DNA from: Podarcis gaigeae
Taxonomy: Eukaryota
Length of the DNA stretch: 64,000 nt
Reading direction: 5' to 3' (one strand)
Assembly (NCBI GenBank): GCA_964106915.2
Contig: OZ066916.1
Shown here: positions 2,330 to 58,604 of the stretch, piece after piece
Position numbering within the stretch: the stretch's first letter is position 1
Layout of the letters: every line of letters starts with the position of its first letter
Program-made: the position numbers and the translations under genes
The notes under the pieces: model-generated
Told to the model about the DNA's origin: nothing
Database searches by the model: none
The model's input: only the letters and a program-made list of their open reading frames with translations

Positions 2330-4131
2330 AGCTTGCTTTGGGCAGGAAAAAGCAACTAGCAAATTTAATAAATAATAATAATAATTTTGGACTATAACTC
2401 CCACGAGTTGCAGCCAGCACTGCTACTGAATTCCAAAATATCTGGTCCATGGCGGCAAAGGCTCCTATAGATGGAGTTTTGCAGAATATGCTGTTGGGAA
2501 GGAGGTCGCAGATCGAAGTCAGCTGAAGCTCATAAGCATTTTGAGATAAACACACGTATTATTTTTGATGGTGACAGCTAGTGGGTGAAGGATTTCTATG
2601 TGCAGCAGAGTTTGTGGACGGGGGCATGTGCATGAGGCATGCTGAGGTGCAAGTATGCTACATGGATCCCCTCACACATTCTCCTCATGGTGTCTGAATC
2701 TCTGTTGGATGAGTTGGCACAGACTTGTGAAATGAGTGCAGAGACTGAAAAGGTCATATGAAAGCTTTTATTTGCGGTGGCTGCAATGGTCCCCTCCACT
2801 ATCGAAGCCATCACTAGATATTGTGGTCATAAGCTAGTTTTTGAAAGCTGTAATGGGAAGACTTTGCCCTGAAAGGTTGGCAAAAAATACATTCACCCTC
2901 TGCACTCCCTCCATCAAGGTTAAGGTGTATATATGTGTAAGTAAAACCATATTATCTAAAAGACTCCGCTGTGCCTCATTTTTCCAATGGAAACATGAAC
3001 CCTGGATAAGGGCAAAGACTCCTGGAACCTCACACCACTTGGGAGAGATTGGGGTGGCCCTTAACAAGATGTTCTCTTCACATCATGTGAATGGTAGAGA
3101 AAGGATTCTGTCTTATTTTCTGTTGTTCACCCTCCGGAGCAGATCTGTGGAGCAGGCACAAGGAGAGAAGCAGCCAGGGTTGTTCTGTACACAAACAGAA
3201 GTTCTAGTGCTAGTGGAACTACTTCTCTGGACACCACCCTTTCTTTTAATCCTTCTTTCAAGGTGCTCAGGACAACTTTGTGTCCAGAGCTGACAACAAA
3301 CCGGCAGTGCAATCCTATAGACGTCTACTGAAATGTAAGGCTAGATGACTTCATTGTGACTTACTTTCAGGTAATTGTGTGTAGGAATACAGCCTAGATC
3401 AATAATTTGACCAAGTGAGTGCAGATGCTACTTAATAGTTTTCACTGAGGCCATGAAACCTTGAGCGCATGGCTATCAAGGTTTGGGGGTGGAGGAGGGA
3501 GAGAACTTGAACGTTGAGACCCACGGAATCATAAGCTTGGGAGTGTCCGGAACCATATTCCCGATCACTTCCACCCATTTTGTCTTGTCTGAAAATCTGC
3601 TATTGAGCACAGAGTTTGCACCAACAAGGGTGTCAGGACTGGACAGCCTTCTCGCCCTCCCCACGTCTTACTACTCTAGGGATTGCTATGCTGTGGAATG
3701 GCAGGCGACCCCACCAACATTTTCTTTTGGATGCACATTTCAATTCACCTTTTACAATGTCAAGATAATAACTCTACAGTGTTGAAGAGAGCATACCACG
3801 AGTATCAAGACTAGATGCTAGAAAGTGACTTATTTGTGGCTAAAACAGAATCCACTTTTGCTCTGACCCTTACCTGTCCTTCAGTCACAAATCCACTGAT
3901 ATAAATTCACAAGCTGTTTCATGTTACTTTAGGTAACACATTACCTATTGTGGATAAAGGCCTGTGAATAAAATACCTACTTCTTGTTAAAAAAGAAGAC
4001 TGCTATGGCTTCTAAACCTTGACTTATATAGTATTCACTGGCTGTAGGTCATGATGTCTGCATCTTGCACTGGTTTGTTGACTGATTATGAATGCCTGAA
4101 AACCACACTGCTTTCCTCCTCCATCTTTCAG

Positions 4132-4425
4132 GCATCCTGACAGTTCTGGGAAATTCAGCTGTCCTGGCAGTAGCTGTGAAGCGCTCCTCCCATCTCAGGT
4201 CACCTGAGCTCCTGACGGTTAATTTGGCCGTAACCGATCTTGGAATGGCCATCAGCATGTATCCCCTGGCTATTGCTTCTGCTTGGAACCATGCCTGGCT
4301 GGGGGGCGATGCAACTTGCATTTATTATGCCCTGATGGGTTTCCTGTTTGGTGTCGCCAGCATGATGACCTTGTCTGTGATGGCTGTAATCCGCTTTCTT
4401 GTAACCCACTCTTCAAAGTCCAATA
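4132..4425 (+). CDS. OPN5L2: OPN5L2 coding exon (TM1-TM3)
   Basis: ctttcag|GC ... CAATA|gtgagt, 294 nt, phase 1-1; ILTVLGNSAVLAVAVKRSSHLRSPELLTVNLAVTD...VIRFLVTHSSKSN. Confidence 0.93.
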
Positions 4426-6648
4426 GTGAGTAACAAAGCACAGAAGGGTGGCAAAGGTGAAACAATTTCAAAGCTTTAGACTTCATGTCAAGGCCAAGGG
4501 AATAATATTTTAAAGAGCCTATTAGACCTTTTCTGTGTGTTTATAGATTAGATATATTCAGCATTACTGCAGTAAACAATGGGGGCGGATATACAGTCTG
4601 GCCGTAAACATGTTTTGAGCTGTAAACTGAAATGCATAATACCTTGTAGGAGTTGGCACTGTGGTGCTGGTGTGAAAAACACTGTTCTTCTTTACATTGG
4701 CTGTGTACCTCTGCTACTAGCCAAAGATAGTTAACCACATCTGGTGACCAATGGAAATGTCCTAAGCTTCCCTGAGAATGCTTTAAGGAGGCCTGTAAAT
4801 GTTGCCAGGCAATATACACAAAAGTATCACACTAGACAAGTGCGTTCTAAAGTATGTCTATATAGCCATAACTCAAACAGTTATTTTTGACGGAGATCAT
4901 GTACATAATGTCTCCACAGCCCGAGCGAAGGGTCATGGCTTACAGGGCATGCAGAAGATCCCATGCTCAGTCCTTGCCATCTCCAAATAGAACCTGGGGA
5001 GTCTGAAACCCAGGAAAGCTGGACAACAGAACGACAGGGATAATTGCCTGGCAGATTTCTATGTTATTCAAATAGTGTTGGTGTCTATAGTCTACTTTCT
5101 TTTCTTTTCCTAGGTAATACAATCAACAGAAAAGTCATCCATGTTTCTATTGCCTTGATCTGGCTGTATGCAGCCCTCTGGGCCATGTTGCCTCTGCTAG
5201 GCTGGGGGCATTACGGCCCAGAACCATTTGGCACTTCCTGCACCATAGCCTGGAGCCAGTTCCACAACTCGGCTAATGGGCTTTCCTTTATTCTGAGCAT
5301 GTTTATTCTGTGTACAATTCTGCCAGCAATTACCATCACCATCTGTTACTTGGGTATAGCCTGGAAGGTTCATAAAACCTATCAAAAGATGCAGAACTTC
5401 AACAGGACTTCAAATGCAGCAAAGCTGGAGAAGAAATTGACATTGGTGGGTATGTGTTGTTGTGAGCAGAGTATTTTTGTATTTTAAAGAGCAATAGGAA
5501 CACAGTGTTCCTTTGACTCAGACATTGATTCTGTCCCTACAGATTGAAAATTATTGTCAAAATATTGGGGAAATGCCAAAGCACTTATGGATGCTGTGGA
5601 CTGGGCTGTTTGTGTGTGTTTGCCTTCATGTATGGTTTGTGTTCCATTTGAGTTGCAGACATTGAGCAACTCCTCTGTTTTTCAGTTGTTAGATTCATTG
5701 GTATGAAATCTTATTGTATTAATGCGAAATAATATTAATATTCAAAATATTTATACCCCACACATCTGGTTGGGTTTTCGCAGCCACATACATACTGGGG
5801 ACTAACTTAATGATGAACCTGTATACTGTAAGACTCTCAGATCTTGCAATACATGGGCTCATAGAGGAACCATGTGGTATATATATTGCTATTGTATGAG
5901 ATGTTGAGGTCCTGCCATATTTTCTTCTATAGGACTATAATTTGAAACAGGTGACATTCCATTATGATGTAAAGCATCTGATAAACACAAAGGATGCTGT
6001 TCTTAATTTCTTATCCTGATCTTGTGTTATTTTATTCTGCTGGAGGGCTGCTGTAGTGCAGAGGATACTGCTTTTGGGTCTTAGGATAAAATGGACAGCC
6101 TAAAATGAATGCAAGAGCCAATTGTTTAAATATCTCTTAAATGTTAAAGCACTAATCCTTCATTTCTCTCTCACCGATTCAAAATAACAGATAGAGAAGG
6201 AGAAAATATAAAAAGCCAGCCAGTAACTAACTATAAGTGGTTGTTTTTACAGATGGCTGTACTGATCAGTGTGGGATTCCTCAGCGCATGGACACCATAT
6301 GCCGCAGTCAGCTTCTGGTCAATATTTCACTCCAGTGAATCAATACCACCCATCGTTACCTTGTTGCCATGTCTTTTTGCTAAATCCTCAACAGCCTACA
6401 ACCCTTTCATTTACTATGCTTTCAGCAAAACTTTCCGGCGTGAAATTAAGCGCCTCCAGTGCTGCTGTAGTCAGAAAGTTTACTTTAGCACCAAGCATAC
6501 CAATAGCCATGTGTCAGTGATTTGGTCAGGAAGGGATAACGCGCACATTTCTTCATTCAGAAAGACAGATAGTGGAGAAGTTCCAAATCCATCCGCTGCA
6601 GCTGCAGAAGTCTTATTTGAAAACGTTGCTCTAAAGTCCAGATCATGA
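4132..6648 (+). CDS. OPN5L2: Opsin 5-like 2 (Opn5L2 / opn8 group neuropsin), coding exons 4132-4425, 5114-5445, 6253-6648; first coding exon not located
   Basis: Three AG/GT-bounded exons with compatible phases give an uninterrupted 7TM opsin: GNSAVLA, NLAVTDLG, YGPEPFGTSC (counterion Glu181, Cys187, Thr188), AWTPYA, FAKSSTAYNPFIYY (Schiff-base Lys, NPxxY). Closely resembles chicken Opn5L2 as I recall it. Confidence 0.92.
5114..5445 (+). CDS. OPN5L2: OPN5L2 coding exon (TM4-TM5, ICL3)
   Basis: ttcctag|GT ... ACATTG|gtgggt, 332 nt, phase 1-0; contains WGHYGPEPFGTSCTIAW. Confidence 0.93.
6253..6648 (+). CDS. OPN5L2: OPN5L2 last coding exon (TM6-TM7, C-tail)
   Basis: ttttacag|ATGGCT to TGA at 6646-6648; contains AKSSTAYNPFIYY. 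AATAAA at 6697-6702. Confidence 0.93.
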   Translation: MAVLISVGFLSAWTPYAAVSFWSIFHSSESIPPIVTLLPCLFAKSSTAYNPFIYYAFSKTFRREIKRLQCCCSQKVYFSTKHTNSHVSVIWSGRDNAHISSFRKTDSGEVPNPSAAAAEVLFENVALKSRS

Positions 6649-7203: not shown

Positions 7204-7338
7204 CAGGCATAGGCAACCTTCGCCCTCCAGATGTTTTGGACTACAATTCCCATCATCCTTGACCACTGGTCCTGTTAGCTAGGGATCATGGGAGTTGTAG
7301 GCCAAAACATCTGGAGGGCCAAAGGTTGCCCGTGCCCG
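7204..7338. mobile_element. Short hAT-type MITE
   Basis: Terminal inverted repeats CAGGCATAGGCAACCTT / AAGGTTGCCCGTGCCCG around a palindromic core (GGACTACAATTCCCATC...GGGAGTTGTAG). Same family as 23756-23891. Confidence 0.75.
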
Positions 7339-7772
7339 TCTGGAGGCAGACCACCAGGGGTAGGAAATGCATATTTGTCAATCTGACAAGCAAACAAAGC
7401 TAGGACAACGAGACTGAACTGAACTGAAAGGGCAAGAGGCATGTGAATAAACAGTATGAAACAGCAGGACATAATTTCACCACCTTTCTGTATCAGTAAC
7501 ATTTATTTTAAATTGTAATTTGCATTTCCAAAGATCTGAAATGTATTTCAGATATAATGCCGTCTTATATGCAAAAATTTTAAATTTACTCATTTCATTT
7601 AGATTCTTTGATAGATCTTACATACATATGTAATAATATTGCAGATGATTTCCCACTTTCTTAGAAAGCATAAGGCAACACCAGAAATTGTAGATGATTT
7701 AAATTTTTTATCAACAAATCACAATGCATCAACACAAACTATAAGATATAAGGTTTGTTATGAGACAGAGGT

Positions 7773-9069
7773 TTACAGAGATTGCTGCCTCATTTCCAAG
7801 CATTTCTCGATATCATCAAGAACTTGGACAGCTGCCTTTGGGATTCGGGTTCCAGGGCCAAATATATTGGAAACACCAGAGGCATACAAGAAGTCATAAT
7901 CCTGTGCAGGAGAAAAACAGACATAAAACATACCGTACATGCAAACTTTGTAAAGTAAAATTCTGCAGAACATATGCTAAAAGAGCAGAGTTTAGCGATG
8001 GCAGGTCAGGAGGTAGCACACATGGAGAAGGGAAAATAACTTGGTATGCTAGCTATGGGGGAAAACAGTGATGCTCTCACCTACGCAAACCCCGCCATGT
8101 GTGCAAAGTCCTAGTGACTACAAGTTCAAGCAATCTCTGCTCTAGGTGTTATCCTATGTAACATAAAGAATGAAATCATCAAAAGTGGTGAACATTTTCA
8201 CCTCTGCTCCAAGACAACCAGAGACTTGTGGCTCTATACAAATCTTTTGCCAGGTGCAACAATTATACCAAGGTCAAGAGATTCAAAGCAGAAAAGCAAA
8301 TTCTACCAGCCCTTTCTTCCCTTCTTCTTCCTAACTATTTAAACCAATTCATGAACTAAGAACTTCTACACTGACCACTAATAATGAAACATATGTTGTA
8401 GATATTTCTCCACATTTATTATGCTATTTTTGTGATATACAAATGACATAAGAATACTTGGTACAGTATACTTATTTGTATAACAATATTCTTGTTTATA
8501 ACCCCACCCCACCCCACCCCACCCCCCAGAAAAAAACAAATTCTGGAAGAAGAAAAATTATATAGTTTCTATTTCAGTAAAGGAAACTGGTCCCTTTTTT
8601 CTTCATTTCTTAAAATGTTTATGAATATTTTTAAATTTAAAAAGTGATATTTACATTATTTGATTATATTGGCAGTTTTCGAAAGCTTTTGGGAGACTGC
8701 TTCTCAACTGCATTGTTCTGTGAACCTTAAACCTAGAAACTACAGCGCTTTCCCAAATTTGCTGAAGGATTTCCACATTTCAAAAGCTAGATTCTATTTT
8801 AAAAGCCTTTCAATGGTGTTCATTTGCCTGGAGGAGGAGGAGGAAAAAGTAGATGGAGACCCCACCTCACTGGGAACAATTTAATCATCTCACAACAAGC
8901 CATCTTGTGATGGTGGTGCACAGTACCTGGGGAGGAATGGCGCCTCCACACATGAGGAGAATGTCTGGGCGGCCAAGGGACAAGCCCTTCTGTGGCCAGC
9001 AGCCAAGGTGCTCGCCCCCACGCAATGCACATCCGCATCTACCGCCTGCTGGGCCACTTCACGGGGTGC
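7773..9069 (-). pseudogene. MMUT: Methylmalonyl-CoA mutase relic: only the last two exons (8927-9069 frameshifted; 7773-7901 intact)
   Basis: Exon 7901-7773 (gcacag|GAT, 129 nt) encodes [42 protein letters not shown], the MMUT C-terminus. Exon 9069-8927 (cctag|GCA..CAG|gtactg) encodes [26 protein letters not shown] and, in another frame, [17 protein letters not shown]. It is 143 nt, and the conserved 39-nt KTLVPELIKELNS segment is replaced by 14 nt (25-nt loss). No upstream MMUT exons were found by eye. Minus-strand AATAAA at 7502-7507. Confidence 0.88.
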
Positions 9070-9904
9070 CTAGGAAGAGAAAGCAAAGGAAGTGTCAAAC
9101 AATATGGGAAAGAAGAATGCATAAAACCTAACACTGCATGCAGACCCAGGCTTCTTTTTTCACAGAGAAGAGCGACAAGAAAACACTAGGCACCAGCATG
9201 CACCGCTCAAGGCTGCTACTGGCATTTAGGTTAGACAATATGGGCGCCCAGAAAGTAGAGTACAGAGAGGAACATTGCCACCTATCGATGACATCTTCCA
9301 ACTCGGGAATCTGTAAAATCATCCTAGTACAATATATTCTGATAGTTACCTTTTGTGTGAACAGTAAATTGAAACAATAGGTGCAAATATTTTTTTTAAA
9401 ATTTATTTTACAAATTTATAAATTGCTTAAAAGCCTGAGGCCCACAAAGCTGTGTACCAAAATCTAAAATACCAAAAAAAAAAAAAAATGTTGTGGCTGC
9501 TTCTGGGTTCCCTCCTGCCTTGGATATATATTCAGGTTTTATTTAAAGAACGGTTTTCCTTAGCTTCCTAATCCCCACCCCTTTGCCCCCCAGTGAAGGA
9601 AATCAGGCTGAGAGACTGACTTCCCATAGCGAGGTTCACAGCTGAATGCCTTTCCCCCATCCCAAACATCCCTCTAGTCCCACACCTGGACCCCCAGGAG
9701 CCGGGGAGAGATGCTCTGGACCACAGCCTCCCCCCCCCCCAATACCTGGCAGGGGCTGCTTCCAGGGCTGGGCCCAGCAACGGCCTGGGGCGGCGCCTGC
9801 TGAGAGGCAGCGGGACAAGGCTGCGCTTCCACCTCATCTCCGCAACCTTCAAGGAAAGACACAGAAGCCCAACTGGACAAGAGCCAAGAACCCTTAACGA
9901 TTGA

Positions 9905-10333
9905 TTAAGGTGCCCCGAGGCCGCCCCTCTCTTCCTCCTCTTCCTCCAGGTCTTCCAGGATGAGCTCTTCTGAAAGGGAAAGAAGAGAAGGCTGCCAGTT
10001 AGAGGGGCTTCTTACACACACACACACACACAGAGAGAGAGAGGGACTTTCTGAAGACATCCCTAGAAACAGACATTACCTTCTGGGGGACTCTCCTTCG
10101 TTTTTGCCTGAGCCTGCAGGGAAAGAAAGAGCCACATGGGATGTGATGCTCTACAGCTCAAAACAGGCCTCAGACAGAGACCTTTCCTGAGAAATCTGAG
10201 GGACTGGAATCAGCTTCTATGGGCTGAAAGGTTTTACCTTGGAGGTCCTTTCAAAAAGGGTCCTGCAGGGGGGGCGGGCGGGGGGCGGAGAGGGGGACTC
10301 GGGGACGGGGCAAACTTTATTTTTCTTTGCCAT
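9905..10333 (-). CDS. Putative unannotated small spliced ORF (64 aa from the internal ATG; exons 10364/10333-10238, 10113-10080, 9969-9905)
   Basis: Three pyrimidine-rich acceptors (ctctttcttttctag, ctttctttccctgcag, ctctttccctttcag) and two strong donors (AAG|gtaaaa, AAG|gtaatg), with phases 0 and 1 matching. Product MAKKNKVCPVPESPSPPPARPPCRTLFERTSKAQAKTKESPPEEELILEDLEEEEEERGGLGAP*. Minus-strand AATAAA at 9538-9543. No family recognised. Confidence 0.45.
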
Positions 10334-10672
10334 CCGCGAAATGGCTTTTCGCAATCTGGTAAACCTAGAAAAGAAAGAGCAAAATGTGAGAAATGGGGCT
10401 CACAGTTCATCCTCTCCGGATCTACTTCCCAAAACTGCTTTTTGCATTCATGCCTCTGAGCTCCCTATCACCCCAGAATTCAGTTGCACATCAAGGCACC
10501 CCAAGAAGAAGGAGAACACATTGAGACAGAATTTGACTCTGAAGGTTAATGGGCAAAATTTAGGCCACAACTTTATTGAGGACAGCAATGTGAGTGGTAT
10601 TGGGTTTCATTGTTGAGGGTTTTTTCAGTGATTTTACCTCAGGAAATAGGCCCCTGAAACGGACTTTGGGCA

Positions 10673-11592
10673 CACATACAACAAAAACCATAATAACACT
10701 AATAACACAGTTTGACAATTCAGATTTGGATACACTGATATACCTATGACTACACCTTTTTAACAATATTTTCCTGCCTATCTCTCCTCCCCCTACTTCC
10801 CACCGTTATCCGCCTTATCGCTTAAATATTCCTTCCAGATTTCTTCATATTTATCCATTCTTAATTTGTGTCCACATGCAATTTGTTTGTATGTAGCTAG
10901 TCTGTCCATATTATCAATTCATGTGCTCAATGGAATCTTTTTGCGGCTCTTCCAAATCATCAAAACAAGTTTTTTTGCTTCTAATATAGCACGGTACACC
11001 CATTTGTTTTGACCCCTTGTAATCTCCCATGTTTCCAAAATATAATTTAGAATTAAATTTAATTCCGCTAAATAACAATTTCTTTTTATTACTCTTGCTA
11101 TAAATATCCTCACCTCACTCCAAAATGATCTTATTATCGGGCATTTAATCATCATATGTACTAAGTTCGCATTTTTACTCCCACATCTGCAGCAGTTGTC
11201 CGCGCTTGTTATTTTCTTCTGGTATAGTTTTGCTGGAGTCCAGTGGACTCTGAATATTATTTTCTGTTGAAGAAGTCTTAGTCTTAGATCCACAGAGGCT
11301 ATTTCTGTTGATTTTATACTTGACTCCCATATATTATTTGTTATCTGTACCCCTAACTCTTCACTCCATTCTTGTCTATCATATTCTAAATCATATTTCT
11401 TCCTGTTGAGTAGAGTTTTATATAGTGCAAGTGTAGAGTTTTTTGTTTTTGCTGCAGAGATTAAATCTTGTAGCAGCATGGGTGTTTCCGATGCTGCTAT
11501 AGCGTCAGGGCCAAACTGCCTTTCCAACATATGTTTCAATTGGATGTATTGCCATTGTGTTTCACTGGTTAATCCATACTTTACTTGCAAAT
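10673..11592 (-). mobile_element. 5'-truncated L1/Tx1-clade LINE (ORF2 C-terminal region)
   Basis: ORF 10919-11590 contains RVHWTPAKL and the Cys-rich CxRC..HMMIKCP..FW motif typical of the vertebrate L1 ORF2 end. Bounded by the exact 26-bp direct repeat TAGGCCCCTGAAACGGACTTTGGGCA (10647-10672, 11593-11618). Confidence 0.85.
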
Positions 11593-13503
11593 TAGGCCCC
11601 TGAAACGGACTTTGGGCATGCCTGGCTTAGGCATTGCCAATAACTATATCTGACTCCTGCCCACCTTGCAGGAAGTCTGGAAGAGTAAACCACCAACAGA
11701 GGGAGCTCCATCAATGGCGACCAACTGAAACTCACCCCGGGGTTCCCGCTGGGTCCTGGCATGGCCCTAGCCTCCCAAGCAGACTTTGGACAAGATCCGG
11801 ACCCGCAGATTCCTTTACCGGAATACCCTTGTACCTGGAGGGGCAGGTGATGGCCGCTCCTCCCCCCCCCCACATTTCACTAAGCCAATGCCTAACCGCC
11901 AAACCTTACAAAGTTGTGACAATTGCTAAGAGGTAGACAAAAACCAAGAGGCCAATACCAATTTGCCAAATGGAAAAAATTCCTACCCGGCCCCTGTTCC
12001 AAAACAGGCGACCAACCGAAGTCCAGAGCAAGGCCAAAGCACAAACCCAAATCGAGGGTGGGTGGGCAGGTGTTTGGCAGCGCAATCCCAGGTAAACCCC
12101 CCCCAACGCTGCGCCGCTGTCTTTTAAAGGCCCCCCCTCGATCACACCACCACTCCCAAGGAAGGGGGGGCTGCACCTATGGCCTGTGCGCAACGCGGAC
12201 CCTCAATTAAGAGGGTCCGATATGCTGAAAGAAATCCTACTTACATGCTCTCTCTACTCTCACAAGCACAGAATGATCCAAGCATAGGAGATCCCAGACC
12301 TTCTAGAGCTCTGGCGACCGATGAGCCAACAGAGGGAGATGTCACAATGAACCTTGTGATGCAGCACCCCTGGGCCCTGAGAAAACCAGCAGCCACAAGC
12401 CCTGCTCCTCTTAAGGGACGCGACTAAGTTTTCTTAGTCAAATTTATCCGTAGAAACTATTATGATGATAGCAAAATATTATTGCTTTCTTTAACACATT
12501 ATAAAACCAAACCACATTATAAAACCAGTTCATAAAACGAAAGAAAATGAATATTGAGGATTGCTTTCTTGAAAGCATCACCACACCCAAGACGATGTGT
12601 CAGGCTCCTGGCATGGGCGTAGCCAGGGAGGCGGGGGGGGGAGCTGCCCCCTCTAAATCAAGTAAATCAATAAAAATACTGAACTAACTGACCAATTGTG
12701 TCACAGATAACTCGGCTCTGCCCTTAGCCTCCAAAATAAAGCCTGCCCCACAATAAATGCTGTTTGCACCCATGGCTCCAAATCCAGGATGGTGCTTTCA
12801 AGGACGCAATTTCAGCCCCATTTATTCTGATCCTTATGAAGAACTGCTCCCTTTTCCCCATCCTCTTAACAAATAAATTGCCACGGTGGCAGGTTTGATC
12901 CCCAGATGGGCCAGCCATATATTCCTGCATTGCAGGGGGTTGGACTAGATGATCGGCTGGGTCCCTTCCAGCTCTACAATTCTGTGATTCTTATGTTCTC
13001 AAGCTCCCCTGGTGCCAGCCAGGTGTGGCCACTCAGTTTCCTCAAGTACTTGAGGAATGGCAGCCTGTCATAAGAGGATGACAGCGGATGGGCGGCAACA
13101 AGCCTCTCCTATCTGCTGGGATTGCCAGCCGGCATATGCTGTGCCTGCTCAAAGATGCCTGTTGCTTACAGCTACAGCCATCTCATTCTAGTTTGTGTAA
13201 AGGAGTTTCTAGCCCAAGTATCTGCCACGGAAATAAAAGGTCTGGAAAGGTTAACCTCGCTCAGAGCGGCCAAGGCGGCATCACTTGGGAAGAGAATACT
13301 CTTTAGTATTTCATATCCATCTCTGACTAAACAACACAACAGGGTGGCCTTTCAACCAACTTTAGATGATAGAAGCCAAGTTTTCACCATTTATTTAGCC
13401 ACTTTTGATTTTCACAAATTTAAGCATGTGTGTTAAGCCTAAGGCCTCAATTCTGTGTTCATTTGATTGCAAGTGGGTTCCACACTGAATTCAGCAGAAT
13501 TTA

Positions 13504-13867
13504 AAGGTAAAGGTAAAGGTACCCCTGCCCATACGGGCCAGTCTTGACAGACTCTGGGGTTGTGCGCCCATCTCACTTAAGAGGCCAGGGGCCAGCGCTG
13601 TCCGGAGACACTTCCGGGTCACGTGGCCAGCGGGACAAAGCTGCATCTGGCGAGCCAGAGCTGCACACGGAAACGCCGTTTACCTTCCCGCCGGTAAGCG
13701 GTCCCTATTTATCTACTTGCACCTGGAGGTGCTTTCGAACTGCTAGGTTGGCAGGCGCTGGGACCGAGCAGCGGGAGCGCACCCCGCCGCAGGGATTCGA
13801 ACCGCCGACCTTTCAATCGGCAAGTCCTAGGCGCTGAGGCTTTAACCCACAGCGCCACCTGCGTCCC
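13504..13867 (-). mobile_element. Full-length Sauria SINE
   Basis: (AAAGGT)n tail at left, reverse head CACAGCGCCACCTGCGTCCC at right; perfect 13-bp TSD TCAGCAGAATTTA (13491-13503, 13868-13880). Confidence 0.95.
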
Positions 13868-14975
13868 TCAGCAGAATTTACTTTTGAGTAAAAGCTTGTG
13901 TCGTATGGTCCATGATCCTTCTAACTTTTCATAACTCAAAAAGCTGACTGCTTTTTCAAAAGTTTGGTGGGTCAAAAGTGTCAGAGCCTCCCCTACTGCA
14001 TCTTCTGCATCTTATTACAGGAGCCCTGAAAATCAATAGTGCCTCTGAGGGCACCACACCTTCCTTCAGCAGTGCTTGGGAGAGCAAGCAGAAAGTCAGA
14101 ACTCCTCCTTCCACCATAGAGCAGACAGACAAAGAGCTCTAGACAACTGCACACTTCCGGTTCTGATCAGAAATTTCCACATGCAGGTTAAGAATGGTGG
14201 GGAAACATGGGGGAACTGTCAATAAATCAGGGCAGGTTTGCAGATGCTTCTGCATTGCTCTGCATTGTGCTTTTGACTATGATGATATACCGATGGACGT
14301 TCAGTGCAAGATCCTGCTTCCGCTCTGGTTGCATGAATAGAAATGGGCGATTTTTGTTTTTTATAAATGATTTTATATGTTTCCTTCCCTGCCGCCCAAG
14401 GGTTTTAATATGATTTTTCAGGATAGAAGGATTTCTCCTTCTATCCTGAAGAGAGATTAAGATTAGGGATAAATCTTTTTAAAAGATAGTAAGGGAGGTA
14501 TGTTAAAAGGGAACTGTGTGAATAGCTTTGTTAAAGGCATTTAAAACAGGCAGAAATTCAAGCCAATTATGTATAAACGCTGTATTTTAAAGCACATTGG
14601 AAGCACATTCTTGGCCTCAAAGAATTCTGGGCATTGTGATTTTCCCCTCACAGAACTACAATTCCCAGCAGCAGTGCCCGGAATTCTTTAAGCGGGAGAA
14701 ATGGACTGGAAATGTGCTTCAAAGATATTGTTTGTACATAGCCTGAGTCTCCTCCATGGAGGGTTGAAGCTGTTCATTTTCTGTTAAACAGCCTTTAAAG
14801 GCACAAAACCTTTTCCACCAACAAAATACTAATGGAGTTTTTGCTTTCACCATTTTGGGGCTCCCAAAGTCGGTCTTGTCACTCACCCCACACCCCAACT
14901 CTCTTGAAACCAGGCTGAAAATTGGAATGGGTTCCCAGCTCAGTCAGTAGAGCCTGAGACTCTTAATCTGAGGGT

Positions 14976-15280
14976 CATGCTGATGGCCATTCCAAGATCG
15001 GTCAGGAGCTCAGGTGACCTGAGATGGGAGGAGCGCTTCACAGCTGCTGCCAGGAAGGGCTGAATTCCCCAGAACTGTCAGGATGCCTGAAAGATGGAGG
15101 AGGAAAGCAGTGTGGTTTTCAGGCATTCACAATCAGTCAACAAACCGGTGCAAGATGCAGACATCATGACCCACAGCCAGTGAATACTCTATAAGTCAAG
15201 GTTTAGAAGCCGTAGCAGTCTTCTTTTTTAATGAGAAGTAGGTATTTTATTCACAGGCCTTTATCCACAATAGGTAATGT
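14976..15280 (-). pseudogene. OPN5L2: Inverted duplicate of the OPN5L2 intron end plus the first ~130 nt of the exon (copy of 3938-4259)
   Basis: The reverse complement aligns to 3938-4259 with 9 point substitutions, one small +1 complex change and an 18-nt deletion. Confidence 0.95.
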
Positions 15281-15524
15281 TGTCTACTGAAGTTCTCCCC
15301 CTGGGCCAGCAGGGGGTACTGTAAATAGTTTTCACTCAGGTCCACATATGCAAATAAGGGATTGAAAGTGACCTTCAGTGATTGGATAGTGGTTACTGTT
15401 GCATTGTAGTGGAGCTCTATATAAGCAGGTTGGCTGAACCCTTCAGTTCAGTTCTGGCCTGTGAATAAACAAGAGCTGTTTGAAGAATCGCTGTGCCTCT
15501 GATATGTTCACCCACAGCTTAACA
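15278..15524 (+). mobile_element. Solo LTR
   Basis: TGTT...AACA termini, TATATAA near 15418, AATAAA near 15464, ~250 bp; no matching TSD. Confidence 0.65.
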
Positions 15525-15769
15525 GTTCCTGCCTTGCAGGGGCTGGACTAGATGACCCTAGGGTCCCTTCCAACTCTACAATTCTGTGATCCATTGCTGC
15601 ATCTTCACTTATTGCGAGGTATTTCAAGGGAAAGAGTGATACAGGCAGGCTTTCCCCTGAGAGGCTCATCTGGTACCTCCACGAGGCTCCTTAAGGGGAA
15701 AACCTTTCTCTTCATTTCTGCCTTCCGCTCTTGTGTTCCTTATGCATTTTCTGTTTTAATCTTGTGTTT

Positions 15770-16350
15770 TGACGCGGCTCCCTCCAAGCCTTTAAAACAA
15801 AGCGGCGCCCAGGGCGGGCTCCTTCGGCTCCTCCTCCACGCCTGTCGGAAACTGCGCTCGGGAGCCGCTGGTGTCGGCGGAAAACCCTTCGCCCGCATCC
15901 CTTTGGCGCCGCCCCCGCCACTGCAACGCGCATGCGTGGTCGGGGCAGGGCCGAAGGAAGAGTCCGGCTCTCCGGGAGGGAGGCGGAGGGGCGGGGCCGG
16001 GCTCCGTCCGAGGGGGGCTTTCCGGCAGAGGCGCCCCCCCCCCGAGACCGCGGACGAGAAGCTCCGGAGGTTTCCTTGGGGTCCCTTTGGCCAGGGTCCC
16101 CCCCCCCGGCAGCGGCAGGATTCTTTCCCGGAGGCGCCCCGAGGAGACGCGGCCAGTTGGGCCGCCCGCCTCTCGCCCGCCCTTGCAGCTCCCGGGGGGG
16201 GGGGGGTCTGCACCCCCCTGGTCCCGATCTGGCCAACTTCTCCGTAGACCCGGCTGTGTGGAGGGAGGGGCTGCTTTCCAGGCCGTGGCTCCCGGGAGGG
16301 GAGGGCGGTGCTTTGGCTCGGGAGAGGGGAGGGGGGGGCAGCTCCGGATT
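15770..16350. promoter_or_regulatory. CpG island with promoter-like motifs and no identifiable downstream gene
   Basis: Dense CpG; NRF1-type palindrome ACGCGCATGCGT near 15926; GC boxes (GGGGCGGGGC near 15988; CCGCCC). Confidence 0.75.
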
Positions 16351-18644
16351 TAGGATGCTTCAGGCAGTTGCCCCACACAGAGCGCCAGCAAAGGGGTTGC
16401 AAAATTGAGAGGATTCATTTTGGGGGCACCAAGTTTTGGCCTTGCACAGGGCACCACATTTAGGAAAGATTCTGGTCTTGGCTGACCTCTTCCTTTCTTG
16501 ATATGGATCCAAGGAAAGTTGAAAGGCTTGCAAGTTCTCCCCAGAGGTGCAGCACGGTATTGAAGGAAATGTATTGGTTTACCTGTTTGGTGTATCTTCT
16601 CTTCTAGCACAGCAAGAATACTCCTCTCCCCAGAAGCCTGCCATTAGCTGGCTGGTCCAGCTCAGTAGGTGACAGTTCAGCTCACCACCCTCGCCCACTG
16701 TCTGCATGGCCCCGTCTAGGGTGCTGAGCACTGCAGTTTCAGGAGAAGCCACACCAGGCAAACTTCCTTTCCTGCATTACTGTTCATTGTAGTTTTGTTA
16801 GAATCAAGTTACCATTGCATGTGGATACATTCACTGCTTCTTTAAAATGGGGGGGGGGACCAGCTTGAGGGGGCCCAGTTTAGGTAAAAGCAGCAGTGTG
16901 AGGGCTGCTTTAGCCTTTCTCTGCCTGCCACTTCTCCATTCCTATCTACCCCCAACTGCTGCTCCCTCTGTGTGGTGCTCAATCCATGTTTGTGAGGGTG
17001 GAGTGTGAAAACAAACTGGAAATAGCTTGAGAGAAAGAAATCTTTCAGTTGAGAAGCAGGGTATGGGGGGGGGGGCTTTCCCTGCTCATTCTCTACTTAA
17101 ACCACCCTCTTCCAACAGTGTGCTTTTGAAATAAGTAGTAGATGACAGCTCTTACTTTCATGCATCTGCTTGCATTGTTGATGAGACAGGCGCTTGCAAA
17201 GCCTGTTATTCTGTGAGGTTTGGTCCCATTTGCGCTTTTTCCTCCAGCTCCAGCAGTCACTGTTTCTTCAGAACTCTGTTATGCATCCTAGTTCCCCCCC
17301 CCCCCCGATAGGATAAATGTATGTGTCAGCTAAGTGGAAACTTGGAGATTGCAACTTGAAATGTTGTCTGTGGTACGGTGGGATATTTATCCCTGGAACC
17401 TTCTTCCCATTTCTCTGCTTTTTCTCAAGTCTCACTTCCCAGCTGTTTTCCCAGGTTCCTTTTTCTTCCTTCCATTGCCTTGCTGCATGCTTCCACCTGC
17501 CACCTTGCCCTGGTCTCTCCATCCCTTAGTTTTACTATCTCCTGTGATCTCTTTCTAATCCTCAGCCTTCCCCATAAAGCTCTGCCTCTTCCTAGGGCCT
17601 GTGTGGTGTTTTAATCTTAGCCAAAATGACGACGTTCCTTTTTAACCTACAAGTTGAACTGAAATATTCTGGCAACTGTGCTCACTCAGCTCTTTGATAA
17701 TAATCTGTCAGAAGTGCAGTACGATATACTGAGTACCCCCCCCCCTTAATTTTATTTATATATATATATATATAGGCATAGTTCCTATTTGCATTTCACT
17801 GTCTTTTTTCAGTGCAGCAATGTGCTTGAGTTGTGTTACCATTAAATACTTGGGCAGCCCAGTGACTGGTGATGTGGCAACTGCTAAACACATTATTATG
17901 CTGTTACCATTATTGTGGTGTTAACATTGTAATCTTCTCAGGTATTTAATTACTTTTCCAAAGGCATCTATAAATTATCTTTCTAAGCAGCGTGCCAGCT
18001 GAGACATTAAAATACAGCTTTTCATTTAGAAAGGTTGCTGAAAAATAATTCATTCTTGTGGTTGGCTTTCTTATTTTAGTCTATTACCCCATCTTGTCTA
18101 AAACCAACATCAGTTTATTTTTAATCTGCATTAGCTATGGAGGTGTGTCGTGAATTTCAAAAAAAACATACCACTTACTCAGGATAATAAATATTTTGGG
18201 TTTACGAGCACAGTATTTCAAAATAATGTGTAGGTAGTTTTCAGCCGCAGTTGCAGGTGTAAAAGCTCAGTTGCAAATGGCATGTGCTAGTTTTCTGTCA
18301 TTGTACTAATGCTTCACACGGTACCTTGCTAATGCACAAAGGTTTAAAATAGTCCACATTTCTCTGGCAGATCAGGGGTTAGTTTGGGTCCCATAGGCTG
18401 CCTGTTCTGTCTGATGATACACTCACACCTTTGTAGTGCAGCAGCTGTTCTGCCTTTGGGCAGTCAGTTCTTGGATGTGCAGATCCAGGAAACCCCATCC
18501 ACTGAGAGCATCCTGCTCTGTTTTCATAATGTTAATTTAAAGCCTTGTTCTCGGATGGTTAAATAACAAGATGCCATATCATAATGACTACTTTTTGCAC
18601 AGCTGTGCAGTCAAGTTTGGATTTGTAGCCAGCTATTTCAGTTA

Positions 18645-25304: not shown

Positions 25305-34181
<8,877 letters not shown>

Positions 34182-35917
34182 CTTGTGGGAAGCCCGGCTG
34201 TGCCCGAGGAGGGAGACGCGGCGCCGGGCGCCTCCGACGTGCCTGGCCGAGCGCGGGCAAAGCGGCGCCGGAGCCGACCTGGCAGGAGGAGGGGCGAGGC
34301 CGGGCCGGACGGCAGGAGCTCCTCGGCGAGGCTCGACGGCGCGGCGCGCGGAGATGGAGCTGCGGCGGCGGCGGCGGCGGCGAGGAGGAGGAGGAGGAGG
34401 AGGAGGAAGGCGGGCGGGCGGGCGGGCGAAGCGAGGCTGCTGCTGGGTGCCAGGCGGGAGGCGGCCCGGCAAGCCCTGCCCGGCGGCGCAGGGCATGGAC
34501 CGGGAGGCGACGCGCCCAGGCTGGTGGCCTGGCCGGGCGGGCGGGCGGGGGGCGGGATGGAGAGAGAGCGGGGTCTTCAGCCCGGAGTGTTTTGCCCCTG
34601 GGGGAGGCCAGAGGCCAGGGAGCGGGCCGGGGGTGGCGCCCCACGGAGTCCAGATGCAGAGCGGGCCACGGCGAGGGGGATTGCCAAAGGTGGTTTTCCT
34701 CGGCTACTCGCTGCCTTACAAAAAAGAAATTTTTGCCCAGCTTGTAAAGCTAAGTTGCAAGCGCGTAAGTTGCGGGCTGACTGTAACATATCCCCTGCTT
34801 GTTTGTTAGTTTGTCCTGTATTTGTTCCTTTTTAATTCCGTGGCTGGCGCAGCACCCAGAAATAATCAAGAAATTGTTGTGCTTTCTAGTTTCTTATTTC
34901 TGTCCCATTTAAAAAAATAAAAGGCAACCCATGTTCCTTAGGCTTCCAAAAAAATCATGCTAGCAGTGGCGCCTCTGTATGAGGTTTGTTTGTACACTTG
35001 GGAGATTTGAGAAACTGGGCCTGTTGTCTGAGTTTTCCATCCTTGGAGCAGCTTTCTGTGTCATGATTATCATTTTCACTCCAGAATCCAGGGGGCTCAA
35101 GGATTTCCCACCGTAAACAATTAGCATACACCACTGCAGGTGTTCCTACAGACTTGGGCCGGCCCTACCATTAGGGAGAATGAGACTACTGTCACTTTAC
35201 CCCACATAAGCTCACTTGGCAGCTTGGATCTGCCACATAATATTCACTGCGCACTTGTAAGAAATCAGTCTTTTTGTGTGGAAGCACCTATACATTGGAA
35301 CTCCCTGCAGGTGTTTTCACTGTACTGTTTTCAGTGCCCATTAAAACATGGTGCCTTCTTACATAATTCTAGGCACCAGGAAAAAACATTTCTCTCCCCC
35401 CAGGCAGTTAGTTGGCTGATTAAACTATCTATGGCCTTTTAAATGTGTTGCGGCGTTCAGTGGTTTTGAACTCATTTCAGCTTCGCTGGGGAGGGCAGGA
35501 TAGAAATAAAATGTTGTTGTTATTATTATTATTATTACTGAAGTGTTTGATTCCACTCTCAACGACTGAGACAAAATTAAGGGCCTCAGTTTCACTCCTG
35601 ACTAAAGAAGCTGAAGTACATTTTTGTGAGTACCCCTGCCCTATGTATAGCCATATAGGGCTTTTTTTCAGACAAAACTCACCGGAACTCAATTCCAGCA
35701 CCTCTCAATTGGGTGCCATTGCCATTATAACAGAACAAGGGGGAAATAGTCCTGGCTACCCCCAGAGCGAAGACCACTCTCGCAGATACTCAGTCACAGA
35801 AAGAAAAAAAGAAAACACTTTAATAAGTAGCATTTTGAACAGAAAAATCAAAAATATTTTCACATTCTTTTATCTATGTCACAAAGACCTACTTAGACAG
35901 CAAATGGATTGTCTATA

Positions 35918-43281: not shown

Positions 43282-46200
43282 ATAGAATCATAGAATCATA
43301 GAGTTGGAAGAGACCACAAGGGCCATCGAGTCCAACCCCCTGCCAAGCAGGAAACACCATCAGAGCACTCCTGACATATGGTTGTCAAGCCTCTGCTTAA
43401 AGATCTCCAAAGAAGGAGACTCCACCACACTCCTTGGCAGCAAATCCCACTGTCGAACAGCTCTTACTGTCAGGAAGTTCTTCCTAATGTTTAGGTGGAA
43501 TCTTCTTTCTTATAGTTTGGATCCATTGCTCCGTGTCCGCTTCTCTGGAGCAGCAGAAAACAACCTTTCTCCCTCCTCTATGTGACATCCTTTTATATAT
43601 TTGAACATGGCTATCATATCACCCCTTAACCTCCTCTTCTCCAGGCTAAACATGCCCAGCTCCCTTAGCCGTTCCTCATAAGGCATCATTTCCAGGCCTT
43701 TGACCATTTTGGTTGCCCTCCTCTGGACACATTCCAGTTTGTCAGTGTCCTTCTTGAACTGTGGTGCCCAGAACTGGACACAGTACTCCAGGTGAGGTCT
43801 GACCAGAGCAGAATACAGTGGCACTATTACTTCCCTTGATCTAGATGCTATACTCCTATTGATGCACCCCAGAATTGCATTGGCTTTTGTAGCTGCCGCA
43901 TCACACTGTTGGCTCATGTCAAGTTTGTGGTCAACCAAGACTCCTAGATCCTTTTCACATGTACTGCTCTCAAGCCAGGTGTCACCCATCTTGTATTTGT
44001 GCCTCTCATTTTTTTTTTTTGCCCAAGTGCAATACTTTATATTTCTCCCTGTTAAAATTCATCTTGTTTGTTTTGGCCCAGTTCTCTAATCTGTCAAGGT
44101 CGTTTTGATGTGTGATCCTGTCCTCTGGGGTGTTAGCCACCCCTCCCAGTTTGGTGTCATCTGCAAATTTGATCAGGATGCCCTTGAGTCCATCATCCAA
44201 GTCGTTGATAAAGATGTTGAATAAGACCGGGCCCAAGACAGAACCCTGTGGCACCCCACTAGTCACTCTTCTCCAGGATGAAGAGGAACCATTGATGAGC
44301 ACCCTTTGGGTTCGGTCAGTCAGCCAGTTACAAATCCACTGAGTGGTAGCATAGTCAAGACCGCATTTTACCAGCTTCTTTACAAGAATATCATGGGGTA
44401 CCTTGTCAAATGCCTTGCTGGAATCAAGGTAGGCTACATCCACTGCATTCCCTTCATCTACCAGGCTTGTAATTCTGTCAAAAAACGAGATCAGGTTAGT
44501 CTGACATGACTTATTTTTCAGAAATCCATGCTGACTATTGGTGATCACAGCATTCCTTTCTAGGTGCTCACAGACTGTTTGCTTAATGATCTGCTCCAGA
44601 ATCTTCCCTGGTATTGATGTCAGACTGACTGGGCGGTAATTATTTGGGTCCTCTCTTTTCCCCTTTTTGAAAATAGGGACAACATTTGCCCTCCTCCAGT
44701 CTGCCGGGACTTCGCCTGTTCTCCAGGAATTCTCAAAGATGACTGCCAGTGGTTCTGAGATCACATCTGCCAGTTCTTTTAATACTCTTGGATGCAGTTC
44801 ATCTGGCCCTGGAGACTTGAATACATCTGGACTAGCCAAGTATTCTTGTACTATCTCCTTAGTTATTCTGGGCTGTGTTTCCTCTGCTGAATCATTTGCT
44901 CCAAATTCTTCAGGTCGGGCATTGTTTTCTTTATCGGAGAAGACTGAGGCAAAGAAGGCATTGAGGAGTTCAGCCCTTTCTGTGTCCCCTGTTTGCATTT
45001 CACCATCTTCTCCTCTGAGTGACCCCACTGTTTCTGTGTTCTTCCTTTTGCTACGAACATACCCATGAAAGCCTTTTTTGTTGCTTTTAACCTCTCTAGA
45101 AAGCCTGAGTTCATTCTGTGCTTTAGCTTTTCTAACTTTGTGTCTACACCTGCTGGCTATTTGTTTGAATTCCTCTTTGGTGGTTTCCCCCCTTTTCCAT
45201 TTTTTGTACACATCCTTTTTTAATCTTAACTCAGTTAAAAGTTCTTTAGATAGCCACTCTGGCTTCTTTAGGCACCTTCCATGTTTCCGTCTCATTGGTA
45301 TTGCCTGAAATTGTGCTTTTACTATCTCCCTCTTAACAAACTCCCAGCCATCATGAACTCCCTTTCCTTTTAGTATTACTGTCCATGGGATCTCACCCAG
45401 CACTTCCCTAAGTTTTATGAAGTCGGCTTTCTTAAAGTCAATAAACTGAGTCCTAGTATGCTTGGCTGCTCCTTTCCGCTGTATAGTAAACTTCATAAGA
45501 GCATGATCACTCGTGCCTAATGATCCTTCCACTTCTACCCCACTAACCAGGTCATCAACATTGGTTAGGACCAGATCTAAAATGGCTGTTCCTCTTGTTG
45601 CTTCTCCCACTTTCTGGACAATGAAGTTATCTGCAAGGCCAGTGAGGAATCTGTTTGACCTTATGCTCTTGGCTGAGTTTGACATCCAACAAATATCCGG
45701 GTAATTGAAGTCCCCCATTACTACTATCTTCCTTCCTTTTGCATGCTTGGCCATCTGTTCCAGGAAGGCATCATCTATGTCCTCCGTTTGGCTTGGGGAT
45801 CTATAGTAAACTCCCACAATGAGGTCCCTGTTATTCATCTCTCCCTTAATTTTGACCCAAATGCTCTCACTTTGGCTTCGAGGTTCTAAATCTTGGATCT
45901 CTTCACAGGTATACACATCCCTGACGTATAACGCCACTCCTCCTCCTTTCTTGTCTGGTCTGTTTCTCTGAAATAGATTGTATCCCTCCATTTTTACATT
46001 CCAATCTTGGGACTTATCCCACCAGGTTTCAGTGATGCCTATTATGTCATATTTAGTTTGCTGTACCAAGAGCTCAAGCTCATCTTGTTTATTTCCCATG
46101 CTTTGCGCATTAGTGTACAGACATTGAAGTCCATTAATCATTCCCCCGTGTCTCTTATTTAAGGATTTTTTCCTCCCACCACTAGGTCTGCGTGCTGTTT

Positions 46201-46594
46201 GCTCCATTTGGTCTATGACATTTGGATGATCATCTTCATCAATTGATAGACTCCTACCTTCAGGAGCACTGTCTCCCTCCCCCACATTAGTCAGTTTAAA
46301 GCCCTCCTGATGAGGTTTCTGAGATTTTTGGCAAAAAACATTCCTCCCAACCATTGTGAGGTGCAGCCCATCGCTTGCCAGAAGTCCATCTTCAAGAAAC
46401 TGCAGTCCGTGATCTAAGAATCCAAACCGTTCCTGTTTACACCATTTGCGAAGCCAGTTGTTCACTTCCACTATTTTCCCCTCTCTCCCTGGGCCACGTC
46501 GTTCAACTGGGAGGACAGATGAGATGACAATTTGTGCATTTAATTGCTTCAATTTCCTGCCCAGAGCCTCATAATCTCTTTTGATCTTCTGGAG
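43282..46594 (-). mobile_element. Young CR1 LINE, 5'-truncated within ORF1 (esterase end plus ORF2 APE endonuclease and reverse transcriptase)
   Basis: ORF1 remnant with DGLHL; ORF2 motifs YTNAQSM, GITETWW, MGDFN, SDH, SGVPQGSVLGP, KFADDTKL; (ATTCTATG)n 3' tail at 43282-43302. Only two frame breaks, both in homopolymers. Confidence 0.97.
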
Positions 46595-48454
46595 ATAGGA
46601 TTCTGGAAATTTATAAATCACTAGTGCTAATTGCAGTTGTTCTGAGGGTCTCCAGTGGTGATTAGCTAAGATTCTGGGATATCATGGAATGTTCACAAGC
46701 ATTAGCTTAAAAATAATTGCAATTAAAATGTTTCGTACTCCAAAGTGACCACAAAAATGTGTACTATGAAGGCTCCTTAACTGCACTCTCAGAAAAGTGT
46801 CTCCATTCGTTTTTATGTTAGCTATCTTTCATTTTTCTTTGCAATAAAAGTCAACATGTCATGATAGAGGACATATAAAGGAAAGAATAACAAAGTATTA
46901 GAAATAGCACAATCTAAATTCTGAATCTGAAATTACATAATATGTAGATTTTGATCACTCATTCTGTTTCTGCTTCTATCGGCATATTAAGCACAAAACA
47001 AAAATATTTCCTTCCTGGCTGGATTACGAATCCTTCGCTCTCCTATCTCAGGCCAAAAGCAGTAACTAATTTAAACAACCTACTGTATTTTCTTGCTCTT
47101 GCAAAGTATATAGCTGGCAACATGTCATTGCTTTTTCCACAGGAAAACAGGAAGAAGAATTATGTCTTATTGCTACATTTTAGTCAACACACTCAATTCA
47201 GAATATGAACACAAGGTTTGGTAGAGCAAATCCAGGCATCCTTTTAGAAAGTGGGCCCTGGATTTTGTTGGGTTGTATTTTATTTCCTTCAGATTTCTTT
47301 CCATGTGCCCAGAAGACAGAATACATTCACACCCAGCCATGATAAATATAAACCAGCTCCTGTTTTATGCCACCAAAACTAAATCTAACAGGATCTAGGT
47401 AACCTAGATTCACTAAACTCCGCATCCTGCCCTTGCCAGCAAGCCAACTCAAATCTAATCTCATGCAGCCAACAAAGATGTTAATCTGCGTCACTAAAAG
47501 CACCAAGATTAACTGAGTGCAGGATTAATGCTGAGCTGTTTTTAGAGGCTAAGGCCATGGAATTTTGAACTTGCTGTGAAAATTATTGGAGGCTAGATCA
47601 CTAACATGAGGACTTATCACCCTTTGTTGATGTTTGTGCAATGACTTAACAATTAGCAAACCTATTCATCCTCACAGGTCTTCTAAAATTAGTCCCTGGA
47701 ACTGAATGCCTTGCTGAGTTTATGCTGCTGTGCTGGGTTTTAAGTGGCTAACTGAATGGACAGTAATGTTTTATCATTTAATGAAGAGATGTAGAAACTT
47801 TTTCAGCCAAAGGGCAACTTGTGGGGGATCCTCATGCCAGTGGTGGGCATGCCAGAGGCAAATATAATTGGAGCGACAGACGTGGTGTCTAGCTTTGCAC
47901 TGTAGGCCGCATCCCACCCACACAAAAGCCAGAGGTTTCTACACACAGAGAGACACCGTCTCTCCATCGGCCATGTGAGCAAGCAAGAGGCATTATTACA
48001 GTCCAAGGAGACCTTCCAGACAGACAATGCACGTGAGGAGGGGGCATGGCTGTATCCAGGGTAATGGGGTGTGGCCTAGGGAGAGTCCCAAGGGCCACAC
48101 TGAGAGCCCTGGGGGCTGCATTTGCCCCCTGGGCCTGAGGTTCCCCATCTCTGTTTTATTCTTTGTTGATGGACATTGAATAGTGTTTAACGTAAGTACA
48201 TTTCCACAGCAGACTCCCATGACTGCCCATCTGGAATGCATAATTTTTTAAGAAATTAAAGTTATCTGAGGCAGTAAGCTATATGAACTAGTTTCTTTTG
48301 AAAGGCAAGCTTGCTGGCAGATTAAGTCAGATTACGAATTCTGAACAGTGATTCTATCTCACAATGAGCAGCTGATATTTCTTCCTTCTCCTCCTGGTCC
48401 AAGGGCTTGAAAGAAAGGGGGGGTTAAAAAGCTGGAACTAAGTGGTTTAGACCA

Positions 48455-58041: not shown

Positions 58042-58604
58042 GCATTGCAGCCTTGTGTGTCCTGCTGCTTCTCACTCCCACCAGTTCTGTTGCTCTCCTC
58101 ACGTCACGCCGAGCTTTGTACCCTCACATACTTTGGTTACTGAAGTATAGCAGAGCAGACCTCTGGCTTATCCGGATTTTGGTATGATTTTAAAATATAT
58201 TAATTATGAAAGTTTGAATCTAGGGAGACAGAAATGAGGTTTAATATGACATGCCCAATAATGAACAAAGTTATTAAGTCATAATTGACATTCATTTCAC
58301 TTCTACATTTGGACAGATTTTCAGTTGCCTGGGCAGTCAGTGGACTTGCAAACTAATTTTCCTTAAGAAGAAAATGCTTGACTTGGGCTTTAATCAATGT
58401 GCTATGGTTGCTTCTCTTCACTTTTATTTTCCACATTAACTTCTATGTATGGCAGGTGCAAAATGGAATCACAGTTTATGCCACATGGACCACAATAGCC
58501 ACCCTCCTGAACTTTACATTTGTGTTGATCTACAATATGAATGTGCCCAATATGACGGCAACAGTAACCTCTCTATGCATCCTTTTCTTTGCGCTAATAG
58601 TATA
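58042..58604 (+). pseudogene. Two exons (58042-58181, 58456-58604) of an uncharacterised multi-pass membrane protein gene (QNGxxxYATWTTIA family), probably disabled
   Basis: Hydrophobic exons join in frame at DLWLIRIL|VQNGITVYATWTTIATLLNF (TTG|gtatga, ggcag|GTG). The second exon ends TA|gtgagt where a split Trp codon is expected. Other exons were not found intact. Confidence 0.6.

Follow-up and report, generated by a model that had tools for sequence, protein, structure and literature searches.

A predicted four-exon lacertid gene beside an apparent partial duplicate of MMUT in Podarcis gaigeae

The minus strand of the 64,000-nucleotide stretch of Podarcis gaigeae DNA analysed here (the window; contig OZ066916.1 of assembly GCA_964106915.2) carries remnants of the gene for the vitamin-B12 enzyme methylmalonyl-CoA mutase (MMUT) at 7.8-9.9 kb and candidate exons of a small gene at 9.9-12.3 kb. 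The question raised by this arrangement is whether the two are spliced into a translated chimera, in which dead MMUT exons and their poly(A) site serve as the 3' end of a new gene. Such a product was put forward in the original prediction, along the path 10333-10238 > 10113-10080 > 9846-9746 > 9069-8927 > 7901. The path is open over 161 codons, ending at a TGA (7792-7790) in the last exon, and its exon coordinates, AG/GT ends and phases were all verified. The exons 9069-8927 and 7901 are of MMUT origin as claimed, matching residues 644-677 and 699-739, respectively, of human MMUT in PDB chains (MMUT structures 2XIJ and 8GJU); the second match covers 7901-7776. The 25-nt deletion in exon 12 is also real, since a contig of sequencing run X1 with an intact exon 12 aligns to the window with 25 gap letters. 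Exon numbers follow the 13-exon human gene; coordinates are collected in Table 1.

Table 1. Coordinates of the features discussed in the text.
Feature	Position	Strand	Remarks
Opsin, three in-phase exons	4132..6648	+	Pfam 7tm_1, open frames; tail to tail with MMUT relic
AATAAA downstream of exon 13, putative poly(A) signal inherited from MMUT	7502..7507	-	from sequence only
MMUT exon 13 relic, coding part to original TAA	7773..7901	-	MMUT frame intact; shifted-frame TGA 7792-7790
MMUT exon 12 relic	8927..9069	-	25-nt frameshifting deletion; matches human MMUT 644-677
Intronic stretch joined to exon 12 in a likely processed copy elsewhere	9286..9382	-	GT donor lost in window
AATAAA, candidate small-gene poly(A) signal	9538..9543	-	from sequence only
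Decayed MMUT exon 9	9746..9853	-	carries deletions and a frameshift; of its original splice sites, only the donor survives
Small gene, likely terminal exon, coding part	9905..9969	-	acidic tail; TAA 9907-9905
Small gene, predicted coding exon 3	10080..10113	-	34 nt; identity 10/11 to P0173, 9/10 to P0130
Small gene, predicted coding exon 2	10238..10364	-	acceptor 0.85 pyrimidines
5'-truncated LINE-like insertion, small-gene intron 1	10647..11618	-	zf-RVT below cut-off
Small gene, predicted coding exon 1	12245..12285	-	ATG at 12285; phase-2 donor GTAAGT; overlooked by original prediction
Inverted partial opsin intron and exon, copy of 3938-4259	14976..15280	-	90.7% identity, 323 columns
CpG island	15650..16450	.	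GC 0.66, CpG o/e 0.68; upstream of small gene
Galectin-related gene, last exon	25448-25308	-	likely CpG-island promoter at 33500-34800

The small gene is predicted to have four coding exons. The first was located by tblastn of the module proteins P0128 and P0129 against the window, and its phase-2 donor fits the acceptor at 10364; that acceptor and the homologous first exon make the previously proposed start at ATG 10333 unlikely. The path 12285>10364>10113>9969 is open for 88 codons to the TAA of the last exon, with matching phases throughout, and the acceptor at 9969 is the strongest of the region by pyrimidine content (0.95, vs 0.75 at 9846). Exon 2 encodes a basic amphipathic stretch followed by a proline-rich part, and is homologous to the records P0126-P0130, P0170, P0172 and P0173. 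The sequence features of the family are seen in the window: an MLGSF-C N-terminal exon in phase 2 and, in one open frame, an exon with the basic helix, NKVCP and the proline-rich part, a 34-nt-type exon and an acidic exon.

Clusters and a profile search gave nine gene models that bear this module: four are from P. lilfordi, and five are isoforms of the P. muralis gene LOC114593548. The remaining 44 of 50 matches in the profile search, like P0171, had been drawn in by the MMUT tail of the alignment. The 9969-type acidic exon is present in eight of the nine, the ninth ending earlier, and the 9846 frame or exon 12 continues the module in none of them. The module paralogues are 60-70% identical, and their four canonical-site exons keep one open frame with matching phases; in view of such in-frame paralogous models, plain MMUT intron sequence was rejected as the nature of the module. 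With exon 10363-10238 as query, a word-index search matched none of five candidates, and a full HMMER scan gave two matches, both from Podarcis. Module copies occur at a minimum of three loci in P. lilfordi (at least three, the paralogues there being CAI5769198.1/CAI5769199.1 and CAI7935452.1) and twice within one P. muralis model, and run X18 carries a second copy of 10111-10565.

The likely orthologue of the small gene is P. lilfordi CAI5769090.1 (P0173), judging by its sequence. The first 25 residues are the same, identities amount to 13/13 in exon 1, 10/11 in exon 3 and 13/15 in exon 4, and the model ends in a 9969-type exon without MMUT sequence, as is predicted here. It differs in having a shorter exon 2, a third intron retained in frame (where the window has two stops) and an end that lies a few codons later in another frame, the end of the last exon being shifted by an indel. 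Given these structural and C-terminal differences, constraint on the protein may be weak.

No Pfam family scored above the cut-off for the five module proteins tried. The ESM Atlas gave no usable match for P0128, which is modelled there as disordered (pLDDT 0.46), and the 88-residue protein of the small gene is probably disordered as well. The hydrophobic moment of its basic stretch is high (0.76-0.99). The combination of a basic amphipathic N-terminal helix, nearby cysteines and an acidic tail suggests a disordered peptide that binds a membrane or a partner protein.

The MMUT exons found in the window are 9, 12 and 13 only. The segment 9846-9746, which had been taken for a fourth novel exon, turned out to be the decayed MMUT exon 9: the exon-9 peptide of P. 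muralis P0141 aligns to 9853-9745 with a frameshift-aware score of 62, compared with a mean of 23.5 and a maximum of 34 among 188 control tiles. This exon ends at the donor at 9746, which is 676 nt from exon 12, and the AG proposed as acceptor lies a few bases inside the exon. Homology of the 9846 exon to the module was considered and rejected, as only low-complexity proline matches were obtained. Exons 7, 8, 10 and 11 were not found in 7300-16500, where their scores (25-34) fall in the null range.

The relic differs from the P. muralis MMUT-like protein P0141 at 11 of 87 codons. Seven of these differences are residues that occur in none of 12 full-length lepidosaur MMUTs (a comparison that left out the squamate records P0132, P0133 and P0137), five fall at columns invariant in all 12, and two of the five lie inside the 26 MMUT-frame residues of the proposed chimera; compared with these 12 proteins, the relic bears no sign of constraint in the MMUT frame. 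It has diverged by 6-8% from a second copy in run X18, across exon 13, its 3' UTR and intron 12. X18 holds the window form with 0 differences at 7587-7845 and 8605-8830, and the second copy with 17 differences plus 23 gap letters, and with 18 differences in 225. At a divergence of 4-8%, all eight splice-site letters survive with a probability of 0.5-0.7, and the relic has in fact lost two sites, one being the acceptor of exon 9 and the other the donor that followed 9286. The intact splice sites of exons 12 and 13, for which recruitment had been offered as the reason, can therefore be explained by the youth of the copy, and recruitment is not needed.

The cobalt-binding motif of MMUT is DxHxxG; it is seen as GQDGHDRG in P0001, and this exon-11 motif is absent from the window. 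Complete TIM-barrel and B12-binding domains in one frame are missing from the window and exon 12 is frameshifted; lacking exons 1-8, 10 and 11, the relic could not make the enzyme or the B12-binding domain of MMUT (Pfam PF01642, PF02310). It has kept its introns, a copy intact at least in its 3' part exists elsewhere, and it carries disabling lesions and changes at conserved residues. By these characters it is to be classed as an unprocessed partial duplicate (pseudogene) of MMUT, which is likely to be decaying without a coding function.

Contigs of four out of 23 sequencing runs (X1, X3, X18 and X20; 17 of the 23 are presumed to be RNA) were examined over 7400-10650; blanks in them carry no weight on expression. 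Among the joints listed, ten in number, none is 9746>9069, 10080>9846, 10080>9969 or 10238>10113, the contigs being informative on presence and not on absence; the same holds for the lack of X1 depth at 9798-9906 and 10234-10342. In X3, unspliced contigs extend over exons and introns alike. The X1 depth at 9907-10015 was considered as expression and rejected, as the contigs that give it are GA-rich, unrelated and loose at both ends. Both forms of exon 12, with and without the deletion, occur in X18. Contigs in which exon 12 is spliced to exon 13 are present in X1 and X3; they are of the intact type, and the one in X1 continues into exon 11 (loose ends read by hand), so that another locus transcribes an intact 3' part of MMUT. 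X1 also has relic-like unspliced contigs at 7418-8442 (depth 47-75); they take in exon 13, the sequence on its 3' side and 540 nt of intron 12, and would belong either to a long 3' UTR of the opsin or to an RNA that begins within intron 12.

Taken together, these results are best accounted for by a stand-alone orphan gene whose 3' UTR would extend over the decayed exon 9, followed by a non-coding relic, and we hold this reading to be probable. Through segmental duplications at an ancestral opsin-MMUT junction, copies of the module would have come to lie beside partial 3' ends of MMUT. Splicing of the transcript would use the strong acceptor at 9969, and its end would lie near the AATAAA at 9543, so that the exon-9 remnant 9853-9746 would be transcribed as 3' UTR, and the four coding exons would make the 88-residue protein ending at its own stop. 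MMUT exons 12-13 would have kept their splice sites since the copy is young. Low-level read-through splicing into MMUT exons probably occurs in the cluster, but the path of 161 or 185 aa would be unselected. The idea that dead MMUT exons form the 3' end of a new gene finds support in the models of a sister copy in P. muralis; for the copy in the window, with its conserved last exon at 9969, the specific claim lacks support.

In that P. muralis locus, LOC114593548, the acidic exon leads, in three of the five RefSeq isoforms (isoforms X1-X3), in frame into 28 residues encoded by MMUT exon 10, with non-MMUT sequence following; a fourth (isoform X4) appears, from its peptide tail, to share this junction but out of frame. 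Partial models named 'MMUT-like', 142-299 aa in length (XP_028577832-45), have accessions that adjoin those of LOC114593548 (XP_028577824-30), and the accession order hints at a tandem cluster made up of the module and fragments of MMUT. Further partial models of this kind are XP_077782661 and, in P. raffonei, XP_053236430. The module of LOC114593548 would lie among partial MMUT 3' copies, as in the window, but its fusion joins the acidic exon to exon 10, whereas the window has lost exons 10 and 11 and carries a frameshift in exon 12. Another P. muralis model, P0146, starts with exon 12 in the shifted frame (12/12 identical, read through without a stop) joined to exon 10 of another copy. A full-length lacertid MMUT was not seen among the 105 matches or the clusters read, only partial Podarcis models; as most clusters were left unopened, this is not evidence of loss.

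A second line of precedent comes from the sequencing runs. The joints 9068-9292 in X18 and 9068-9285 in X20 bring an intronic stretch directly onto exon 12, another X18 contig, equal in depth (53.3), links exons 12 and 13, and a T>C change at 9285 is found in X3, X18 and X20. X18 and X20 are DNA-sized sets, and their joints are likely to represent a processed copy of an RNA in which the intronic exon had been spliced to exons 12-13. The intronic stretch has an in-frame ATG at 9294, and P0009 begins with M-P-S ahead of the exon-12 peptide. The P. lilfordi protein CAI5794014.1 (101 aa) consists of three extra residues followed by exons 12-13, with nine differences from P0141 and a Pfam B12-binding score of 33 bits, and may be a model of such a processed (retro)copy. 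MMUT 3' exons are thus used behind foreign exons in this lineage, though on present evidence not by the proposed path.

It is possible, if somewhat doubtful, that RNAs which read through into the relic exist as a heterogeneous, unselected set, in mixed frames and partly targets of NMD, as is seen where a duplication is young and incomplete. This account is compatible with the stand-alone gene, and is favoured by the P. muralis junction with exon 10, in frame in three isoforms and apparently out of frame in a fourth, and by the mixed-copy joint of P0146. Direct 10080>9069 splicing, which gives a stop after three codons, is also of the kind expected. The AATAAA at 9543, however, precedes exon 12.

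The small gene might itself be dead or non-coding, a passenger of the duplication. The LINE-like insertion in intron 1, the indel-shifted end of the last exon compared with CAI5769090.1 and the lack of a Pfam family above the cut-off agree with this, but a single open frame held by four canonical-site exons across paralogues of 60-70% identity makes it improbable. As to the insertion itself, it is young, flanked by a perfect 26-bp direct repeat, and has an open frame of 235 codons.

The chimera, real and translated from the module through the exon-9 remnant into exons 12 and 13 and the MMUT poly(A) site, would be 161 aa long from ATG 10333 and 185 aa from ATG 12285. In its favour are the open path with its stop in the last exon, the intact exon-9 donor and exon-12/13 sites, the splicing of a sister module onto MMUT in the P. 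muralis models, and the processed copy, which points to exons 12-13 having once been spliced behind a non-canonical exon. Yet openness is weak evidence. A phase-fitting, open, pyrimidine-rich AG exon arose in 29% of shuffles of 9904-9746, and the part of exon 12 after the deletion was open in 82% (5000 dinucleotide shuffles each), so that a path of the proposed kind is open by chance at about 0.24, roughly one in four, and the observation stands barely above chance. Moreover, the strongest acceptor (9969) would have to be skipped for a cryptic AAG site inside the decayed exon 9, and the path is used by none of the nine relatives' models. The recruited part, which lacks the cobalt-binding motif of exon 11, has changes at invariant MMUT residues (two of the 26); neither a conserved fused frame nor constraint on this part is seen. 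In X20, two contigs (361 of 433 depth) have a 1-nt insertion behind 9014 and one contig skips 9723-9844 (its short side being 24 letters); both would break the frame of the chimera if the contigs come from the orthologous relic. The variant with a GC donor after 9925 is open as had been suggested (200 aa with the upstream exon), but its donor, GGG/GCGGCC, is far from consensus. We therefore consider a translated chimera very unlikely; the fused protein probably amounts to no more than a minor product of read-through.

That the relic is an assembly artefact, a collapsed or mis-joined MMUT, is scarcely credible and already largely refuted: the region is duplicated and a 200-N gap lies at 1869-2068, but X18, which may be the source sample, has contigs that match the window nearly letter for letter, one of them 954 nt long across 9015-9964, beside distinct intact copies, and X3, from another organism, shows the same arrangement across 9003-9734 in a contig of 726 nt.

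The surroundings of the predicted gene bear on its origin. The galectin-like gene of the window is one that we take to be LGALSL; in human, AFTPH follows LGALSL. By synteny, the opsin would be OPN5L2. The neighbours of OPN5L2 in sauropsids are CDC5L and MUT according to 10.1101/127654, and those of LGALSL are given as UGP2, VPS54 and PELI1 in PMC10343441. Since genes with such different flanks lie near each other here, the window is likely to span a lineage-specific rearrangement adjoining the ancestral 3' end of MMUT. The inverted opsin copy appears to be a footprint of it. This copy has an 18-nt deletion and a preserved acceptor, shares the orientation of the small gene, and could become part of that gene's 5' UTR. 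The CpG island at 15650-16450, a possible promoter of the small gene, has no assigned gene and lies about 9 kb beyond the end of the galectin-like gene; it may be a promoter stranded by the rearrangement.

Other features of the window were noted. A CR1-type LINE and a decayed RTE-type element lie at 44006-46681 (with an open endonuclease/reverse-transcriptase frame of 891 codons) and 52900-55500. On the plus strand, 58456-58602 is exon-like, with 49 hydrophobic codons open between AG and GT and a weak Pfam hint of DUF4534 (E 0.013). Near the end of the window, a 42-bp unit is repeated three times in tandem at 63764-63889.

The annotation of this locus is thereby corrected: the real candidate would be an orphan gene of lacertids with four exons, the pieces of MMUT being a decaying partial duplicate. 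In the wider cluster, at a rearrangement specific to the lineage, an orphan module would lie in between partial copies of an essential metabolic gene. The cluster's pieces are already in databases as uncharacterised or MMUT-like models; the literature searches found no paper on MMUT in Podarcis or in lizards at large, nor on five of the accessions, broader ones returned general papers only, and PMC6381762 does not mention these subjects; the loci may yet figure in tables of lacertid genome papers. As a non-primate system, the cluster could serve for testing how new genes arise from incomplete duplications and for selection on fusion isoforms. A fusion protein, if shown to exist, would clearly exemplify the reuse of pseudogene exons in another frame.

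The locus resembles two known classes, fusion genes and core duplicons, by analogy, with membership in either not established. HYDIN2 (PMC5345166) is an incomplete segmental duplication placed next to other exons, with fusion transcripts, varied splicing and relaxed selection. The present locus seems to work like such a young incomplete duplication, but its fusion is seen in a relative's gene models only. The repeated module, for its part, resembles NPIP/LCR16a, described in PMC7419210 as a small, fast-changing gene repeated with flanking duplications. Both HYDIN2 and NPIP are backed by cDNA, mapped copy numbers and selection tests; the copies here seem clustered rather than interspersed. We judge it distinctly unlikely that lacertids have a core-duplicon-like family at the opsin-MMUT breakpoint whose copies have time and again taken up 3' exons of MMUT as new ends (10 in P. 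muralis; 9-12-13 here), with the present copy making a translated fusion that escapes NMD.
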